Shown here piece after piece: positions 19 through 6,592 of a DNA stretch of 64,000 bases. Under the pieces are notes generated by a model. That model was not told the DNA's origin. It was given only the letters and a program-made list of their open reading frames with translations, and ran no database searches. Numbering within the stretch: position 1 is the first letter of the stretch; each line of letters starts with the position of its first letter. The stretch is from Oscillospiraceae bacterium. Lineage in GTDB: Bacteria; Bacillota; Clostridia; Oscillospirales; Oscillospiraceae. The stretch is taken from the NCBI GenBank assembly GCA_045642405.1, contig JAZUIU010000028.1, positions 21,856 to 85,855 of the forward strand. The letters are read 5' to 3'. Both the position numbers and the translations under genes were made by a program.

Positions 19-684
19 TCAAATCGGCACATTGTTTTGTAAGGTCAATGCAAAGAGATCGGGAATTTCGGACGACAGTCCTTCATATAAGTCCCGATGC
101 ACGGCGGTCGCAACGATCGGAAGTTGCGAAAGGTGCGACACCTCGTTTGCAAACGGGAGCGAATCAAGCACCGTTTGTTCGTCCGTTTCTCTCCCGAGAT
201 TGGAATTGTTGATCAGTCCCGTAACGGGAATTCCGCCCGCCGCCTCGATCTCCGCGATCACTTCCATCGCTTCTTGCGGTGTCCGTGTCAACGGGCGGTA
301 GGCATTGAGCACGAAAAGCATCGCGTAATCGTTTTCTTCAAGCAGTCTTTCGCGCAGTCTTCCCAATGCCAGAGCACCGCGGTCATCGCCGCCGAGGTCG
401 ATCACGGCATGGGATGTCTTATCATCGCAAAGCGTATACATTTCCGGCGGCAATGCCGGCACATCGAGATTGGTATTGACAAAATCGGATGCAATGAGCC
501 GAATGCCCTGCGTTTGCAAATATTCCCGACTGTCAGCCGAGCGGAAATACGGATTGACGATATCCAGATCCGCAAGCGCGACACGCGTATGGCGCTTTTT
601 CAAGTCAAGTGCCAGATTGACTGCAAGATTGGATTTGCCGCTCCCGTAATGACCGCACAGTATGGTTATGCGTTTATCGTCCAT
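19..684 (-). CDS. P-loop ATP-binding protein (ParA/MinD/CobQ-like), of the type found in 2-oxoacid:ferredoxin oxidoreductase (vor-like) clusters
   Basis: Walker A GHYGSGKS near the N-terminus, DLDIVNPYFRS and DLGGDDRGA motifs. An RBS-like AAAGGAAG at positions 1-18 on the minus strand implies the operon continues off the left edge. Confidence 0.75.
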   Translation of the reverse strand: MDDKRITILCGHYGSGKSNLAVNLALDLKKRHTRVALADLDIVNPYFRSADSREYLQTQGIRLIASDFVNTNLDVPALPPEMYTLCDDKTSHAVIDLGGDDRGALALGRLRERLLEENDYAMLFVLNAYRPLTRTPQEAMEVIAEIEAAGGIPVTGLINNSNLGRETDEQTVLDSLPFANEVSHLSQLPIVATAVHRDLYEGLSSEIPDLFALTLQNNVPI

Positions 685-699
685 AAAACACCTGCTATC

Positions 700-2967
700 T
701 CAAAGCTGATTGCGGATGATCTTGCCGCTGATCGTCTTGGGCAGCGAGTCACAAAATTCCACGATGCGCGGGTATTTATACGGCGCGGTATTTTTCTTGA
801 CATACTCCTGGATTTCGCGTTTGAGTTCTTCTGTCCCATCCGTTCCCTTGACCAAAACGATGCTCGCCTTGACCACTTGACCGCGCACGGGATCAGGGGC
901 TGCCGAAACGCCGCACTCCAAAACATACGGCAGTTCCATAATGACATTTTCGATCTCAAACGGCCCGATACGGTAGCCGGAGGACTTGATCACATCGTCG
1001 ATACGGCTGACATACCAATAAAAACCGTCTTCGTCTTTCCACGCAAGATCGCCCGTGTGGTAATATCCGTCGTGCCATGCCTCTTTCGTTGCCGCTTCGT
1101 TTTGATAATAACCGAGGAACAAACCGCACGGTACATTTTCGGATGTTTTTACACAGATCTCGCCGCTTTCGCCCATCTTCGCTTCCGTTCCGTCCGGAAG
1201 AAGCAATTTGATATCGTACAGCGGAGAGGCTTTGCCCATTGAGCCGACTTTTACGCGGTCTCCGATGAGATTGCCGATCGCAAGCGTCAATTCCGTCTGA
1301 CCGAAGCCCTCACAGATGTGAAGCCCCGTTGCATCCAAAAACTGTTTGTATACTTCGGGATTGAGCGCCTCCCCTGCCGTGGTGATATGCACCAGCGAGG
1401 AAAAATCGTATTTTGAAAGGTCTTCTTTCACCATCATGCGCAGCATCGTCGGCGGTGCGCAGAAAGTCGTGATCTTGTATTTGGGGAACATCGAAAGGAT
1501 CGATGCCGCATGGAAACGGTCAAAGTCGTATGTAAAGACCGCGCCTTCACAAAGCCATTGCCCGTAGAGTTTGCCCCAGAGTGCTTTACCCCAGCCCGTG
1601 TCGGAAATCGTGAAATGGATACCGTTTTCACTCACACCGTGCCAATACTTTGCCGTAATATAATGACCGAGCGCATATTTGTAAGAATGTAGTGCCATTT
1701 TCGGATAACCGGTCGTGCCGGAAGTAAAAAACAACAGCATCGGTGCATCGCCGCACGGCGTATCAGCGGTACGGTAAAAATGGACATTGAATAATTGGCT
1801 CTCTTCATCGTAATTGTGCCAACCTTCCCGGTCATGATCGAGCAAAATCTTCGTCAGATCGCCGTCATAGTCCTGCGCCGCAAGATCGACCTGATCGGCA
1901 GTTGCGTCATCGGCGCAAAGGATATAACCGACCGATGCGGTTTGGAAACGGTAGAGAAAATCATGCGCTTGGAGTTGATTGGTCGCCGGAATGGCGATCG
2001 CGCCGATCTTATGCAAACCCAAAATGGCAAACCAGAACTGATAGCGCCGTTTGAGCACGAGCATCACGCGATCTCCTGCACGCACGCCGATGGATTTGAA
2101 GTAATTTGCCGCCTGTGCAGAGGCGCGTTTGATGTCGCGGAAGGTAAAACGGCGTTCGGTCAGATCATCGGCAACATGGATCATGGCAAGTTTATTCGGC
2201 TTTGTTCTGCCGAGTTCATCCACAATGTCAAAGGCAAAATTGAACTGATCCTCGTTTTGGAAACGGATGGACTGCAAAAGTCCGTTTTCGTCTTCCTCCG
2301 TGGTGATGAATTTGGAAACTGCCAATTTTCCTTCCTGCTGTTTGTAAGGGCGAAGGAGCGTATTTTTGACAAAATGCTCTTCTTGCTTTTCACCCGGCAG
2401 CACCACCGCCAAAAAGACGCAATCCGCACCGTCCACGGCGACCATACCGTGCTGGGTGGAACTGTTATAATAGATACTGTCGCCTTCACTCAGATACTCG
2501 ATATTCTCGCCGATCTGCACTTTGAGACGGCCTTTGAGGATATAGTCAAATTCCTGACCTGAATGGCTGGTGAGCGCAATGGGCTGATCCTGCAATTCTT
2601 GCTTGAATTCATAGCGGACAAAATACGGCTCGGATATCTTTTTGAGAAACATCGGCGCAAGGTTGCTGATTTCGATACCGTTTTCCTTGACCGTCTCCTG
2701 TCCGTTCCCCTTGCGCGTAATCGAATAGGACGAAAGATGCGCCGTATGCCCTTCAAGCAAATCGGTAATACCGACGCCGAAGGCAATGGAGCATTTATGG
2801 ATAAAGGTAAAGGGAAAATCCTCTTTGCCCGATTCGTACAGTCTGTAATCCGCAAGAGAGACTTCCGTCTTCCCCGCCATTTCATCTTCGGAGAAGCCGC
2901 AGATCTCGCGCATCGTGCGGATACGCATGGCGACCGCCTGCAATCGTTCGTTTTCAAACTCAGCCAT
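700..2967 (-). CDS. Fusion protein: N-terminal XRE-HTH plus cupin, C-terminal acyl-CoA synthetase (AMP-binding)
   Basis: HTH at aa ~10-70 (RIRTMREICG...YRLYESG), cupin (HSGQEFDYILKG...YYNSSTQHGM), then adenylation motifs FTSGTTGYPK, EGFGQTE, YHTGD, RIDDVIKSSGYRIGPFEIE, PKTISGK. Start moved to ATG 2967 (GGAGG RBS). Confidence 0.9.
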   Translation of the reverse strand: MAEFENERLQAVAMRIRTMREICGFSEDEMAGKTEVSLADYRLYESGKEDFPFTFIHKCSIAFGVGITDLLEGHTAHLSSYSITRKGNGQETVKENGIEISNLAPMFLKKISEPYFVRYEFKQELQDQPIALTSHSGQEFDYILKGRLKVQIGENIEYLSEGDSIYYNSSTQHGMVAVDGADCVFLAVVLPGEKQEEHFVKNTLLRPYKQQEGKLAVSKFITTEEDENGLLQSIRFQNEDQFNFAFDIVDELGRTKPNKLAMIHVADDLTERRFTFRDIKRASAQAANYFKSIGVRAGDRVMLVLKRRYQFWFAILGLHKIGAIAIPATNQLQAHDFLYRFQTASVGYILCADDATADQVDLAAQDYDGDLTKILLDHDREGWHNYDEESQLFNVHFYRTADTPCGDAPMLLFFTSGTTGYPKMALHSYKYALGHYITAKYWHGVSENGIHFTISDTGWGKALWGKLYGQWLCEGAVFTYDFDRFHAASILSMFPKYKITTFCAPPTMLRMMVKEDLSKYDFSSLVHITTAGEALNPEVYKQFLDATGLHICEGFGQTELTLAIGNLIGDRVKVGSMGKASPLYDIKLLLPDGTEAKMGESGEICVKTSENVPCGLFLGYYQNEAATKEAWHDGYYHTGDLAWKDEDGFYWYVSRIDDVIKSSGYRIGPFEIENVIMELPYVLECGVSAAPDPVRGQVVKASIVLVKGTDGTEELKREIQEYVKKNTAPYKYPRIVEFCDSLPKTISGKIIRNQL

Positions 2968-2980
2968 AATAACCTCCAAT

Positions 2981-3023
2981 AAAACAAAAAACCGACAGAC
3001 CCCGCAAAAGGAAATCTGTCAGT
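2981..3023 (-). terminator. Intrinsic terminator in the 5' leader of the acyl-CoA synthetase operon (attenuator terminator)
   Basis: Minus strand ACTGACAGAT pairs with GTCTGTCGGT and is followed by TTTTTGTTTT; it lies 14 nt upstream of the start codon. Confidence 0.8.
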
Positions 3024-3041
3024 TATCTATAACTTCAGATT
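3013..3041 (-). promoter_or_regulatory. Putative antiterminator hairpin overlapping the terminator 5' arm
   Basis: Minus strand AATCTG-A-AGTTA[TAGA]TAACT-GA-CAGATT; starts 3 nt after the leader stop codon. Confidence 0.6.
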
Positions 3042-3044
3042 GCG

Positions 3045-3257
3045 TTAAAAAACGCGCACCCTTTGGGGGAATTGGGAGCCCTTTTCAATAATTCGAGCAA
3101 TCAAAAGGCCCATAATTCGCAAAGAGCGCAAAATAATAGCGGACACCATAACGGTATCCGCAAGAAGAGCAGTATTGCAAGAGGCACAAGCGCGCACGGA
3201 AACGCCCGTAGCACCGACTACGGCAGAGGTACGAGTATTGGCAAAAACCGTACGCAT
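3045..3257 (-). CDS. Putative attenuator leader peptide, 70 aa, Val/Ile/Leu-rich
   Basis: AGGAGG RBS (3267-3272) 9 nt before the ATG. Sequence MRTVFANTRTSAVVGATGVSVRACASCNTALLADTVMVSAIILRSLRIMGLLIARIIEKGSQFPQRVRVF has 21/70 I/L/V. Confidence 0.65.
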   Translation of the reverse strand: MRTVFANTRTSAVVGATGVSVRACASCNTALLADTVMVSAIILRSLRIMGLLIARIIEKGSQFPQRVRVF

Positions 3258-3285
3258 TTCCGATATCCTCCTGTCTTTTTTCAAG

Positions 3286-3313
3286 ATTATAGCACACCTT
3301 TCGCCATTGTCAA
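3286..3313 (-). promoter_or_regulatory. Sigma-A promoter of the leader/acyl-CoA synthetase transcript
   Basis: TTGACA (3313-3308), 16-nt spacer, extended -10 TGcTATAAT (3291-3286). Confidence 0.8.
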
Positions 3314-3428
3314 CCGTTTTCAGCCAAAAATACTTACAATTTTTATGAGAATTTGTGCGTCATCATTGTGCCATATTCACACATTTGCGGCAAAATGGGG
3401 AAATAGACAAGAAATGTATTAGTTTTTA

Positions 3429-3457
3429 TTGCAGTTGCAAAAAAGCCGTGATATAAT
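3429..3457 (+). promoter_or_regulatory. Sigma-A promoter of the met operon
   Basis: TTGCAG, 17 nt, TATAAT with TG extension; about 30 nt before the metY start. Confidence 0.6.
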
Positions 3458-3488
3458 GCTTACTAATATTTTTCGGAGGATTGCAAAG

Positions 3489-4766
3489 ATGAAAATCGAA
3501 ACCAAATGCGTCCAAGGCGGCTATACGCCGAAAAACGGGGAGCCGAGACAACTCCCCATCGTCCAAAGCACCACATTTCAATATGCGACGAGTGAGGATA
3601 TGGGTAAACTCTTTGATTTGGAAGATGACGGTTATTTTTACAGCCGTCTCGCCAATCCCACCAACGATGCAGTCGCGGCAAAAATCTGTGCGTTGGAAGG
3701 CGGCAGTATGGCAATGCTGACCTCTTCCGGTCAGGCCGCCAATTTCTATGCGGCATTCAACATTGCGCAATGCGGCGACCATATCGTCGCCTGCTCCGCC
3801 ATCTACGGCGGCACTTATAATCTCTTTGCGGTCACGATGCGCAAAATGGGTGTGGATTTCACATTTGTCTCCCCCGATTGCACCGACGAAGAACTCGCCG
3901 ATGCGTTCCGCCCGAACACCAAAGCGGTCTTCGGTGAAACGATCGCCAATCCCGCGCTCGCCGTTCTCGACATTGAGCGCTTTGCCGCTGCGGCGCACGC
4001 ACACGGTGTGCCGCTGATCGTGGATAACACCTTTGCAACACCGATCAACTGCCGTCCCTTTGAATGGGGCACGGATATCGTCACACACTCCACCACCAAA
4101 TATATGGACGGGCATGGCGCCGCGCTCGGCGGTTGCATCGTGGATTCGGGCAAATTCGATTGGATGAAATATCCCGAAAAATTCCCCGGTCTTTGCACGC
4201 CGGACGAAAGTTATCACGGCGTTGTCTACGCCGAGCGATTCGGTATTGAAGGTGCTTTTATCAATAAATGCACCGCACAGTTGATGCGTGATTTCGGCTC
4301 GGTACAGTCTCCGCAGAATGCGTTCCTCCTCAATCTCGGTTTGGAAAGCCTGCATGTGCGCGTCAGGCGTCATTGCGAAAATGCGCAGAAAATCGCGGAA
4401 TTTTTGCGGCAGGATGCGCACATTTCCTTTGTCAACTACTGCGGTCTGCCCGGTGACCGGTATTACGAGCGTGCGCAAAAGTATCTCCCCGACGGCTCTT
4501 GCGGTGTGGTCAGTTTCGGCATCAAGGGCGGCAGAAAAGCCGCAGAGACTTTTATGAAACACCTCAAAGTCGCCGCGATCGAAACGCATGTTGCCGACGC
4601 CAAAACCTGTTGTTTGCATCCGGCAAGTACGACGCACCGCCAGATGAGCGACGAAGAACTGCTTGCCGCCGGTGTATCGCCCGACCTCGTTCGTCTTTCC
4701 TGCGGCATTGAAAATGCACAGGATCTGATCGACGATATCCGTCAGGCACTTTCCGAAATCCAATAG
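3489..4766 (+). CDS. metY: O-acetylhomoserine aminocarboxypropyltransferase (sulfhydrylase)
   Basis: Cys/Met metabolism PLP family: YSRLANPT, SGQAA, DNTFATP, HSTTKYMDGHG (PLP lysine), HPASTTHRQ. GGAGG RBS before ATG 3489. Confidence 0.92.
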   Translation: MKIETKCVQGGYTPKNGEPRQLPIVQSTTFQYATSEDMGKLFDLEDDGYFYSRLANPTNDAVAAKICALEGGSMAMLTSSGQAANFYAAFNIAQCGDHIVACSAIYGGTYNLFAVTMRKMGVDFTFVSPDCTDEELADAFRPNTKAVFGETIANPALAVLDIERFAAAAHAHGVPLIVDNTFATPINCRPFEWGTDIVTHSTTKYMDGHGAALGGCIVDSGKFDWMKYPEKFPGLCTPDESYHGVVYAERFGIEGAFINKCTAQLMRDFGSVQSPQNAFLLNLGLESLHVRVRRHCENAQKIAEFLRQDAHISFVNYCGLPGDRYYERAQKYLPDGSCGVVSFGIKGGRKAAETFMKHLKVAAIETHVADAKTCCLHPASTTHRQMSDEELLAAGVSPDLVRLSCGIENAQDLIDDIRQALSEIQ

Positions 4767-4781
4767 TAAAGAGGTATTAAA

Positions 4782-5699
4782 ATGCCGATTAAAATTCCCA
4801 ACGAGCTGCCTGCTTTCAAGGTTTTGACAGACGAAAACATCTTCCTGATGAGCGAGACACGCGCCATCACGCAGGATATCCGTCCTTTGCAGATCGCCGT
4901 TTTGAATTTGATGCCCAACAAGATTGAAACCGAAACCCAGCTTTTGCGTCTGCTCGGCAACACACCTTTGCAGGTGGAAGTGGAACTGCTTCACACGAAA
5001 ACGCACCGCTCTAAAAATGTATCGGAAGAGCATCTTCTCTCTTTTTACAAGACTTTCGACGATGTGAAAGACCGCTTTTTTGACGGCATGGTCATCACCG
5101 GCGCTCCCGTGGAAAAACTGCCCTTTGAAGAGGTGGAGTATTGGGATGAACTGTGCGAGATCATGGAGTGGAGCAAAACGCATGTTCACAGCACCGTCCA
5201 TATCTGTTGGGGAGCGCAAGCCGGTCTTTATTATCACCACGGCATCCAAAAGCACGCTCTTGCAGAGAAACTATTCGGCGTTTTTGCCCACACGGTCGAT
5301 CATCGCTCCTCGATCCTCTTTCGCGGATTTGATGATGTTTTTATGGTGCCGCATTCGCGTTACACAAGCGTGGATATCGAGGATATCAAAAAGTGCAAAG
5401 AACTGAAAATCCTTTCCACATCGAAAGAGACCGGCGTTTATGCCGTTTCCACCGATGAGGGCAAGCAGATCTATCTGATGGGGCATGTGGAATACGATGC
5501 CGCTTCTTTGGGAAAGGAATACCGCCGCGACAAGGAAGCAGGGCTTCCCATCGCCGTGCCGAAAAACTATTTTCTCGATGACGATCCGAGCAAAGAGCCC
5601 ATGGTCACCTGGCGCTCCTGCGCACACATGGTGTTTGCGAATTGGCTCAACTATTTCGTCTATCAGACCACGCCCTACGATATTACCGACATCCGTTAG
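4782..5699 (+). CDS. metA: Homoserine O-acetyl/succinyltransferase (MetA family)
   Basis: [47 protein letters not shown]. Confidence 0.95.
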
Positions 5700-5710
5700 G
5701 AGATTGCGTT

Positions 5711-6592
5711 ATGAAGATCATCGAGCAATTAAACGAGAAAAAATTCACCGTTTCCTTCGAAGTATTTCCGCCCAAAACCGACGCAAATTTCGACTCGGTC
5801 AAATCCGCCACCGAGCAGATTGCCGCACTCAAACCCGGTTTTGTCAGCGTAACTTACGGTGCCGGCGGCGGCACGAGTCAATATACGCTCGCCATCGCCG
5901 AAAACATCAATGCGCACTACGGTGTGCCGTCTTTGGCACACCTCACCTGCGTTTCCTCCTCCAAAAAGACGGTCAAGGAGCGCATCCGGGCTTTGAAAGC
6001 CTCGGGCATTGAAAATGTCATGGCACTGCGCGGCGATATTCCCGAGGAAATGCAGGGACAGGATCGCAGTACATGGGACTATCAATACGCCTGTCAACTC
6101 GTGGAGGAACTGAAACAAGCCGGCGGTTTTTGCATCGGCGGTGCGTGCTATCCCGAGATCCACCCCGAAAGTGCCGATCAGCGCGAAGATATCCGCCATC
6201 TCAAAGAAAAAGTCGAAGCCGGCTGTGATTTTCTGACCACGCAAATGTTTTTCGACAACAATCTTTTTTATAATTTCCTTTTCAAAATCCGCGAAGCCGG
6301 CATCACCGTACCCGTTTTGCCCGGCATTATGCCCATCACCAATGCAAAGCAGGTGGCGCGTGCTGTCAGTCTCTCCGGCTCTTTTGTTCCGCAGCGTTTC
6401 AAAAGTCTGGTCGACCGTTTCGGCTCCGATCCCGAGGCAATGAAGCAAGCCGGCATCGCCTATGCGACCGATCAGATCATCGACCTTTTCGCAAACGGCA
6501 TCTACCATGTGCATATCTACACGATGAACAAGCCCGATGTCGCCGAAAATATCCTCAAAAATCTTTCGTCCATTCTCGGTAAATCGCTATGA
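5711..6592 (+). CDS. metF: 5,10-methylenetetrahydrofolate reductase
   Basis: SFEVFPPK, SVTYGAGGGT, AHLTCV, ALRGD, YPEIHPE, TQMFFDN, HIYTMNK. Confidence 0.95.
   Translation: MKIIEQLNEKKFTVSFEVFPPKTDANFDSVKSATEQIAALKPGFVSVTYGAGGGTSQYTLAIAENINAHYGVPSLAHLTCVSSSKKTVKERIRALKASGIENVMALRGDIPEEMQGQDRSTWDYQYACQLVEELKQAGGFCIGGACYPEIHPESADQREDIRHLKEKVEAGCDFLTTQMFFDNNLFYNFLFKIREAGITVPVLPGIMPITNAKQVARAVSLSGSFVPQRFKSLVDRFGSDPEAMKQAGIAYATDQIIDLFANGIYHVHIYTMNKPDVAENILKNLSSILGKSL

Follow-up and report, generated by a model that had tools for sequence, protein, structure and literature searches.

How is the expression of an operon controlled when its relatives are switched on by an isoleucine-specific T-box and it has none? 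This question is raised by a 64,000-nucleotide stretch of the genome of an Oscillospiraceae bacterium (assembly GCA_045642405.1, contig JAZUIU010000028.1, positions 21,856 to 85,855), which we call the window. On its minus strand, a leader region precedes a gene for a fusion protein made of an XRE-type helix-turn-helix (HTH) domain, a cupin domain and an AMP (adenosine monophosphate)-forming acyl-CoA (coenzyme A) synthetase, hereafter the synthetase fusion. We propose that this leader is a ribosome-mediated transcription attenuator that senses the supply of isoleucyl-transfer RNA (tRNA), a reading to which we give a probability of about 0.63. A preliminary description of the locus had suggested attenuation by branched-chain amino acids in general. 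The core of that idea gained support from T-boxes on orthologues, from conserved leaders and from independent analogues elsewhere, while the signal now appears to be isoleucine specifically and the leader contains two terminators.

The leader consists of a promoter, a Shine–Dalgarno (SD) sequence, an open reading frame (ORF) and an intrinsic terminator, after which the structural gene begins (Table 1). By our own arithmetic, about 0.02 perfect promoter matches of this kind are expected by chance in 64 kb. The peptide contains six Ile, six Leu and nine Val residues, and 14 of these 21 fall among the 27 residues at positions 31-57; all six Ile codons are ATT. These elements and counts, together with the hairpin after the stop codon and the U-tailed terminator whose 5' arm it overlaps, were found just as the preliminary description had given them. 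Two corrections are needed. The ORF was said to escape standard ORF calling, yet its exact 70-residue product from this contig is present in a collection of 5.8 billion proteins. In addition, a second terminator-like hairpin with a U-tract, located within the ORF itself, had been overlooked. We call this internal hairpin T1 and the terminator in front of the structural gene T2. The whole leader folds better than 100 of 100 shuffled sequences (z -4.3). A search of the leader DNA against its own genome returned the self match only, indicating that it is not a repeat.

Table 1. Coordinates of the leader elements and of the operon genes that follow them in the window.
Feature	Coordinates	Strand	Details
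Sigma-70-type promoter	3286-3313	-	TTGACA (3313-3308), 16 nt, TGcTATAAT extended -10 (3294-3286); 12/12 consensus match
SD sequence of leader ORF	3267-3272	-	AGGAGG, 9 nt upstream of ATG at 3257
Leader ORF	3045-3257	-	70 codons + TAA (3047-3045); MRTVF...RVRVF
T1	3129-3161	-	Terminator-like hairpin GCGGATACCGTTATGGTGTCCGC (3161-3139), then U-tract UAUUAUUUUG (3138-3129); ORF codons 33-43; flagged by terminator scan
Ile stretch	3087-3137	-	ATT ATT (3137-3132), ATT (3116-3114), ATT (3101-3099), ATT ATT (3092-3087)
A-rich motifs	3057-3086	-	GAAAAGGGC (3086-3078), CAAAGGGTG (3065-3057); candidate 'region 2', complementary to T2 5' arm + loop
Post-stop hairpin	3013-3041	-	AAUCUGAAGUUAUAGAUAACUGACAGAUU, 3 nt past TAA stop; antiterminator of the preliminary description; predicted free energy (dG) -7.2 kcal/mol; 1/200 shuffles as good
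T2	2978-3024	-	Intrinsic terminator hairpin (3024-2990), then U-run; dG -17.3, z -5.5
Synthetase fusion gene	700-2977	-	SD GGAGG (2977-2973); ATG at 2967; XRE-HTH/cupin/AMP-forming acyl-CoA synthetase
Next operon gene	19-684	-	P-loop ATPase (CbiA/ParA type); operon runs past window edge

Stem I, the specifier loop and the T-box sequence are all missing from the leader, and a translated-type ORF stands in their place. Rfam gave zero matches over the 64-kb window at the gathering threshold, and over positions 2800-3600 at E<=10 it gave no T-box and only chance-level matches to U6 and STnc550. The same search does detect T-boxes on orthologue loci. We searched for the synthetase fusion in 61 genomes of the same order, in one genome per species across GTDB and in metagenome contigs; the loci of its orthologues carry L numbers below. 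About 125 orthologues, counting genome and metagenome loci together, have a T-box upstream. Rfam confirmed the T-box on orthologue loci, with the specifier position aligning to AUC (Ile). Of the 80 closest loci in genomes, about 69 carried the T-box core motif, and ATC was invariant directly before CTTC[CT]GAG in the 65 genome loci in which this flanking pattern was found. Metagenome loci with enough upstream DNA carried a T-box in 56 of 63 cases, and here the specifier was ATC in 39, GTA (Val) in 8 and CTC in 1, with 8 unread. The genome of the window itself has eight T-box matches elsewhere. Judging from the specifier codons, uncharged tRNA-Ile is the usual signal that turns on the synthetase gene family, and tRNA-Val an occasional one.

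Val specifiers were also seen in L149 (GTA) and in L024 (GTC), and this minority suggests that different lineages have adjusted the gene family to different branched-chain amino acids. Some loci contain more than one copy of the gene: L004 and L006 (G040 and G049) have two tandem XRE-cupin-synthetase paralogues, each with its own T-box, and in L206, L207 and L210 a second paralogue lies directly downstream.

The closest orthologues, L032/L003, L033, L034 and L092, have no T-box and carry leaders that resemble that of the window. Three more, L206, L207 and L208, were added through a protein search and contig look-ups. Seven full leaders were thus available (window, L032, L033, L034, L206, L207 and L208), together with the shorter one of L092. 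Within this clade, flanking and orthologous proteins are 79-85% identical to those of the window. In the protein tree the window-type clade is monophyletic with 100% support, sister to the T-box bearer L035 and placed deep among T-box bearers. Since the clade is both monophyletic and nested in this way, a single replacement of the Ile T-box by the window-type leader is the simplest reading of the tree. Orthologues in other genomes of the window's genus are just 57-59% identical and carry T-boxes, suggesting that the operon and its leader may have moved between lineages. The metagenome contigs, scanned with the synthetase, yielded no relative above 72% identity and no new window-type leaders.

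Promoter, SD sequence and start codon were present in seven of seven leaders, with similar spacing between SD sequence and start codon throughout, and in L032, L206, L207 and L208 the promoter occupies the same position as in the window. One frame is open in each leader, for 70, 70, 78, 77, 84, 73 and 84 codons, and the other two frames contain 1-7 stops in the four leaders checked. The preliminary description had proposed looking for conserved leader ORFs in front of orthologues, and the seven diverged leaders do retain the ORF, the Ile codons and both terminators. The peptide itself is a different matter. Its N-terminal halves are essentially unalignable among leaders and its C-terminus is also unconserved. 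What is conserved is a core of 12-15 residues, S-[AS]-F-[IL]-x-S-I-L-R-L, which is mostly encoded by the 3' arm of T1, the U-tract and a CGA CTT sequence whose nucleotides do not vary. Where T1 carries compensatory changes, the amino acids encoded there change too (ADT/VSA, ADA/ASA and EDA/ASS). Amino-acid-level conservation, which had been named beforehand as an argument against attenuation, is therefore absent over the peptide as a whole and partly seen in this short core. As far as these alignments indicate, the pattern does not fit a small membrane protein.

We found that the Ile codons of the leaders are concentrated behind T1. From T1 onward they make up 46 of 288 codons (16%) over the seven leaders, versus 5 of 248 before T1 by our own count, and the genome-average frequency of Ile codons is 6.5%. 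Each leader has 4-10 Ile codons from T1 onward. ATT accounts for 46 of all 51 Ile codons in the leaders, and the Ile codons of the genome at large are 58% ATC and 31% ATT. Six of the seven leaders have a tandem ATT ATT, usually after CGA or GTG, and in the window the U-tract of T1 itself codes for Ile-Ile. In four leaders, 28 of 44 ATH triplets lie in the frame of the ORF (P=4e-5), and the third positions of neighbouring non-Ile codons are not T-rich. Because the tandem ATT is a conserved coding feature and the T-boxes of orthologues read AUC, the sensed signal is most likely isoleucine specifically. A tRNA scan of the draft assembly did not find tRNA-Ile(GAU), which probably lies in unassembled rRNA operons, so that the scan is uninformative on decoding. 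We also observed that the leader peptide of L033 (2118-2352; UBA1762) is rich in Met besides Ile (…VIIINTMIICMMIMMIC…, 6 Met). The operon of the window adjoins methionine genes, and a link between the two observations is possible.

T1 is as stable as T2, with a dG of -16.4 and a z of -5.3 for the hairpin (3161-3139), which is followed by TATTATTTTG. Eight sequences retain it, and 4 of its 10 pairs have changed on both sides; T2 is kept in the seven leaders with 11 pairs, 5 of which show double-sided changes and none of which is broken. In a joint count over these 10 and 11 pairs, broken cells are confined to the loop-closing pair of T1, and 7 pairs have changed on both sides. A 3-nt length difference in the T1 loop leaves the reading frame intact. 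These compensatory changes indicate that T1 and T2 are real RNA helices. When the T1 stem pattern was searched in 401 genomes of the order, the other matches were ordinary terminators, for example after a tRNA gene and in the infC leader. T1 therefore resembles a standard terminator, and the scan added no members to the family. No structure was predicted that would compete with T1 from upstream. Most likely, T1 is a hairpin pause or a terminator that is melted only by a translating ribosome, and as such it would synchronise ribosome and polymerase just ahead of the Ile codons.

The arrangement in L092 (2330-2500; UBA1770) deserves mention beside T1. Here a 35-codon, Ile-free ORF ends 1 nt before a T1-like terminator, and the gene follows. 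This locus is nested in the clade as sister to L033, which suggests a truncated derivative of the window-type leader. Its arrangement resembles a pyrE-type coupling attenuator.

We next considered how T2 might be prevented from forming. The preliminary description had placed the antiterminator in the post-stop hairpin (3041-3013). In the window this hairpin overlaps the 5' arm of T2 and is predicted in folds of truncated transcripts unless the stop codon is occupied by a ribosome. In L033, the equivalent hairpin abuts the terminator without overlapping it, so the hairpin, although predicted in the window, is not kept in a terminator-overlapping form in all relatives. For this reason we assign the role of conserved antiterminator strand to the A-rich motif and that of a helper to the post-stop hairpin. 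Two stretches stand out as conserved islands, the A-rich motif (AAAAGGRAC), which lies close to the end of the ORF, and GGUUCCUUUU in T2. When the region behind T1 was paired with the 5' arm and loop of T2, the best duplex mapped to the A-rich motif in seven of seven leaders. T2 of L208 has an additional C, and the A-rich motif of L208 contains an additional G to match. Thus covariation, which had been put forward earlier as a check on the stems, is seen as compensatory changes in T1 and T2, and for the antiterminator pairing L208 is the sole possible case.

To place the ribosome in this scheme, we modelled the folding of the nascent RNA between the end of T1 and the T2 loop in four leaders, with the RNA blocked up to the 3' edge of a ribosome set at a given codon. 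With the mask at most Ile codons, the A-rich motif was predicted to pair with the 5' arm and loop of T2 in four of four leaders, the arm being 0.58-0.78 paired; the exceptions were the two most upstream Ile codons of L033 (0.43-0.44) and one codon of the window (0.53). In the window, the post-stop hairpin formed as well when Ile codons were masked. With the mask at the stop codon, the 5' arm of T2 was freer (0.28-0.55 paired), and in the model without a ribosome the A-rich motif was hidden by pairing with the Ile-codon stretch in a long hairpin. These predicted folds would follow the classical 1:2 / 2:3 / 3:4 logic, as a thermodynamic sketch and not as kinetic proof. Ribosome-mask folding of the full-length leader was disturbed by pairing of the 5' SD region with the distant T2 loop, and local folding was used in its place. 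An SD:anti-SD helix suggested by RNAalifold with five sequences was lost with eight and was dropped. Beyond one small hairpin, T1 and T2, RNAalifold found no conserved multi-helix aptamer in the leaders.

Taken together, these results suggest the following sequence of events. Transcription would start at the consensus promoter, and a ribosome would load at the AGGAGG and ATG and translate the 70-codon leader. After about 32 Ile-free codons it would cross T1 and directly meet six ATT codons, including two tandem pairs. The A-rich segment (AAAAGGG) could then pair either with the U-rich stretch of Ile codons or with the 5' arm and loop of T2. When Ile-tRNA is ample, the ribosome would reach the stop codon and cover or re-bury the A-rich segment and the post-stop hairpin, T2 would form, and transcription would end ahead of the structural genes. 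Under a shortage of Ile-tRNA, it would stall on the ATT codons, which would be read by wobble, and the A-rich segment and the post-stop hairpin would sequester the 5' arm of T2 and so permit readthrough. If T1 acts as a pause or as a terminator melted by the ribosome, only closely followed transcripts would come to the decision at T2.

This last step could make the leader an attenuator with two checkpoints, in which T1 either lets through ribosome-coupled polymerases alone or pauses polymerases until the ribosome has come up, and the Ile-codon decision is then taken at T2 in the presence of a ribosome. We put this forward tentatively, as a possibility that we hold to be less likely than the isoleucine-sensing attenuator as such. 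If true, it would show how a Firmicute, from a group whose polymerase has been reported to outrun the ribosome, can still operate classical leader-peptide attenuation, and it would describe a recent, traceable swap of an Ile T-box for a ribosome-based sensor of the same signal.

Several points weigh against an isoleucine-sensing attenuator. The enrichment of Ile is moderate and not extreme, and L034 has 4 Ile in 77 codons. A terminator lying within the ORF is awkward for the classical attenuation model. The energies of the antiterminator duplexes are individually no better than those of shuffled sequences (P 0.1-0.5), and the position of the antiterminator motif relative to the stop codon ranges from -38 to +2. 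The core of the peptide looks partly conserved as an amino-acid sequence, and its codons vary synonymously (TCC/TCT, ATC/ATT and CTG/CTT). L092 retains just the Ile-free 35-codon ORF and T1; the tree, however, indicates secondary loss. Finally, Bacillus-type Firmicutes have been reported to uncouple transcription from translation (PMC7858274), which would count against attenuation of this kind unless a pause synchronises both. A T1 that synchronises ribosome and polymerase would answer this objection.

Some of these points would be accommodated by a translation-coupled attenuator without amino-acid specificity, either similar to pyrBI and pyrE or acting as a general sensor of translation stress. 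In such a device the leader would be translated, T1, T2 or both would signal whether the polymerase has a ribosome close behind it, and the Ile codons would be a chance product of hydrophobic or U-rich content. Such a device would explain why T1 lies within the ORF with a strength equal to that of T2, why the Ile enrichment is just about 2.5-fold, and why the Ile-free ORF of L092 ends 1 nt before T1, as in an attenuator that depends on coupling. It would leave unexplained that orthologues are under Ile or Val T-boxes and that the Ile codons are in frame, 90% ATT and tandem in six of seven leaders, and L092 is a derived, truncated form. We regard it as unlikely. The leader might also be a structured non-coding RNA with an incidental ORF, be it a riboswitch of an unknown kind, an element that binds a protein or a tRNA, or a small RNA ended by T1. 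Its high degree of structure (z -4.3), the covarying helices as its best-conserved features, the unconserved N-terminal part of the peptide and the nucleotide-level invariance of CGA CTT would all be expected of such an RNA. However, a single frame has stayed open for 70-84 codons in seven diverged leaders, with the others closed in the four checked, an SD sequence and a start codon are always there, in-frame ATT is enriched, and there was neither a match in Rfam nor a conserved multi-helix aptamer from RNAalifold, which makes this explanation improbable in our view.

The remaining alternative is that the ORF encodes a functional small hydrophobic protein, such as a membrane peptide, a toxin or an arrest peptide, and that the hairpins are ordinary terminators or insulators. 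The ORF is called by gene callers, its C-terminal half is hydrophobic, and the core S-x-F-[IL]-x-S-I-L-R-L is seen repeatedly, with some synonymous differences. Nevertheless, when the leader peptide was compared with the 5.8 billion proteins it matched only itself, and it had no hit in Pfam. Arg, Lys and Asp break every hydrophobic stretch, so that no consistent transmembrane helix is formed, the N-terminal half and the C-terminus are not conserved, and the peptide changes wherever T1 carries compensatory changes. In addition, a terminator within a bona fide gene would be self-defeating. We consider a functional protein very improbable and retain attenuation by isoleucyl-tRNA supply as the preferred reading.

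What would the leader control? Pfam identified AMP-binding, AMP-binding_C and Cupin_2 domains in the synthetase fusion, with a weak hit to HTH_19. On contig C28, the ATPase gene is followed on the same strand by genes for the alpha, beta and gamma subunits of a 2-oxoacid:ferredoxin oxidoreductase, and the operon continues with a LeuA/CimA-like enzyme, a TIM-barrel/AMP-binding fusion and a Glu/Leu/Phe/Val dehydrogenase. The operon had been described as a non-ilv operon, and this view has to be revised, as the encoded enzymes relate to branched-chain amino acid synthesis. From its gene content, the operon probably serves to make isoleucine and its relatives from branched-chain acids. The known enzyme families fit a route in which a branched-chain acid would be activated, reductively carboxylated and then reductively aminated. 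TGAATAT was considered as an operator for the XRE domain and rejected, the motif not being enriched upstream of orthologues.

Divergent from the operon lies a methionine cluster with metY-, metA- and metF-like genes (3489-6592, plus strand), which includes an O-acetylhomoserine sulfhydrylase gene at 3489-4766. In the 5' region of this cluster (3314-3488, plus strand) Rfam detected no S-adenosylmethionine (SAM) riboswitch and no T-box. A 609-codon open frame runs antisense to the metY- and metA-like genes (3426-5255, minus strand). As the sense metY-like ORF has a Pfam hit, we read the antisense frame as spurious; in this genome of about 51% G+C, long ORFs are not evidence of genes.

Leaders of a comparable type were found at other loci. 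L025 (3738-4260, minus strand of the locus) has an Ile/Val-rich leader ORF MTNRLFANLLAGIRGIIIISLVISLPEWQAGGCIGSM (MTNRLFANLLAGIRGIIIISLVIS...) followed by a terminator, and L086 (2300-2500) has another, MNSIVNVVVIYLVIIVSLIIEAGLVRDFRKVQNS (MNSIVNVVVIYLVIIVSLII...), also with a terminator; both ORFs are unrelated to that of the window. The two leaders show complementarities like those between regions 2 and 3. They precede more distant orthologues of the synthetase fusion and, from their sequence, look like independent replacements of the T-box. Outside the window, the same genome contains a consensus promoter, an SD sequence and a 30-codon ORF MIFARLIMMMLGMGMAMYMCMRLTRAFRKS with 9 Met (C48:14775-15100, plus strand), followed by a strong terminator and then by a gene for a MetQ/NlpA-like lipoprotein. 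Firmicutes usually have S-box or Met T-box elements before such methionine genes. We regard the C48 leader as a candidate Met leader-peptide attenuator. A genome-wide scan for amino-acid-biased leader ORFs with terminators was noisy, and only the metQ leader and the leader of the window stood out; a match on C38 was discarded, as it lies inside a gene. The organism thus seems to use function-matched leader peptides more than once.

These findings matter in several respects. One gene family shows both a T-box and a leader peptide, and the change from the former to the latter, polarised by a tree, amounts to a natural experiment on the exchange of RNA sensors. The tandem design of an in-ORF terminator, control codons and a second terminator is unusual, and the leader bears on the coupling of transcription and translation in Clostridia. 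The XRE-cupin-acyl-CoA-synthetase operon is flagged as an Ile- and Val-regulated route by which rumen and gut anaerobes would turn branched-chain acids into amino acids. The leader also adds a cis-regulatory family that annotation based on Rfam misses.

How does the leader compare with known systems? Leader-peptide attenuation is textbook knowledge in Proteobacteria, with few examples in Bacillota, where T-boxes fill the same job. In Escherichia coli and Salmonella, ilvGMEDA (leader ilvL) and ilvBN (leader ivbL) are governed by leader-peptide attenuators with leaders of about 32 codons. The leader described here shares with ilvL and ivbL a promoter-proximal ORF with many codons for branched-chain amino acids, an intrinsic terminator ahead of the structural genes and, by prediction, mutually exclusive hairpins chosen by the position of the ribosome, and in both cases the regulated genes would supply the sensed amino acids. 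It differs in the 70-84 codons of the window-type leader, in control codons that are mainly for Ile and nearly all the minor ATT, in the second terminator-like hairpin within the ORF, in its uncultured Clostridia (Oscillospirales-type) host and in the absence of sequence similarity. The attenuators of E. coli pyrBI and pyrE, in which a closely following ribosome prevents the terminator hairpin in or after the translated leader, are comparable with T1 only, which likewise is a terminator hairpin within or directly after a translated leader. Unlike in pyrBI and pyrE, there is no evident UTP (uridine triphosphate)-sensitive, U-rich pause region upstream of T1, and T1 precedes amino-acid control codons and a second terminator.

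With the Ile T-box (RF00230) of its orthologues, the leader shares its position, the gene family, the probable tRNA-Ile charging signal and a predicted output by termination or readthrough, whereas it has a translated ORF and no Stem I, specifier loop or T-box sequence. A Leu-rich attenuator peptide has been reported for Staphylococcus aureus ilvD (PMC5794164), and in Bacillus, His leaders have been described that take the place of T-boxes at hisS*/hisZ (PMC2965389). As in these cases, ribosome-mediated attenuation would operate here where Bacillota relatives use T-boxes, with paralogous or orthologous genes having changed their type of sensor. Unlike them, the present leader is directed at Ile, is much longer, has tandem terminators, belongs to another gene family and is not homologous in sequence. 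Neither the principle of attenuation nor the switch from T-box to leader peptide in Firmicutes is therefore new. The novelty lies in a distinct, unannotated family in uncultured Clostridia, whose leader exceeds the usual length more than twofold, uses the minor ATT for almost all of its Ile codons and has a terminator placed within the ORF before the control codons, and in the well-polarised exchange of an Ile T-box for such a leader.

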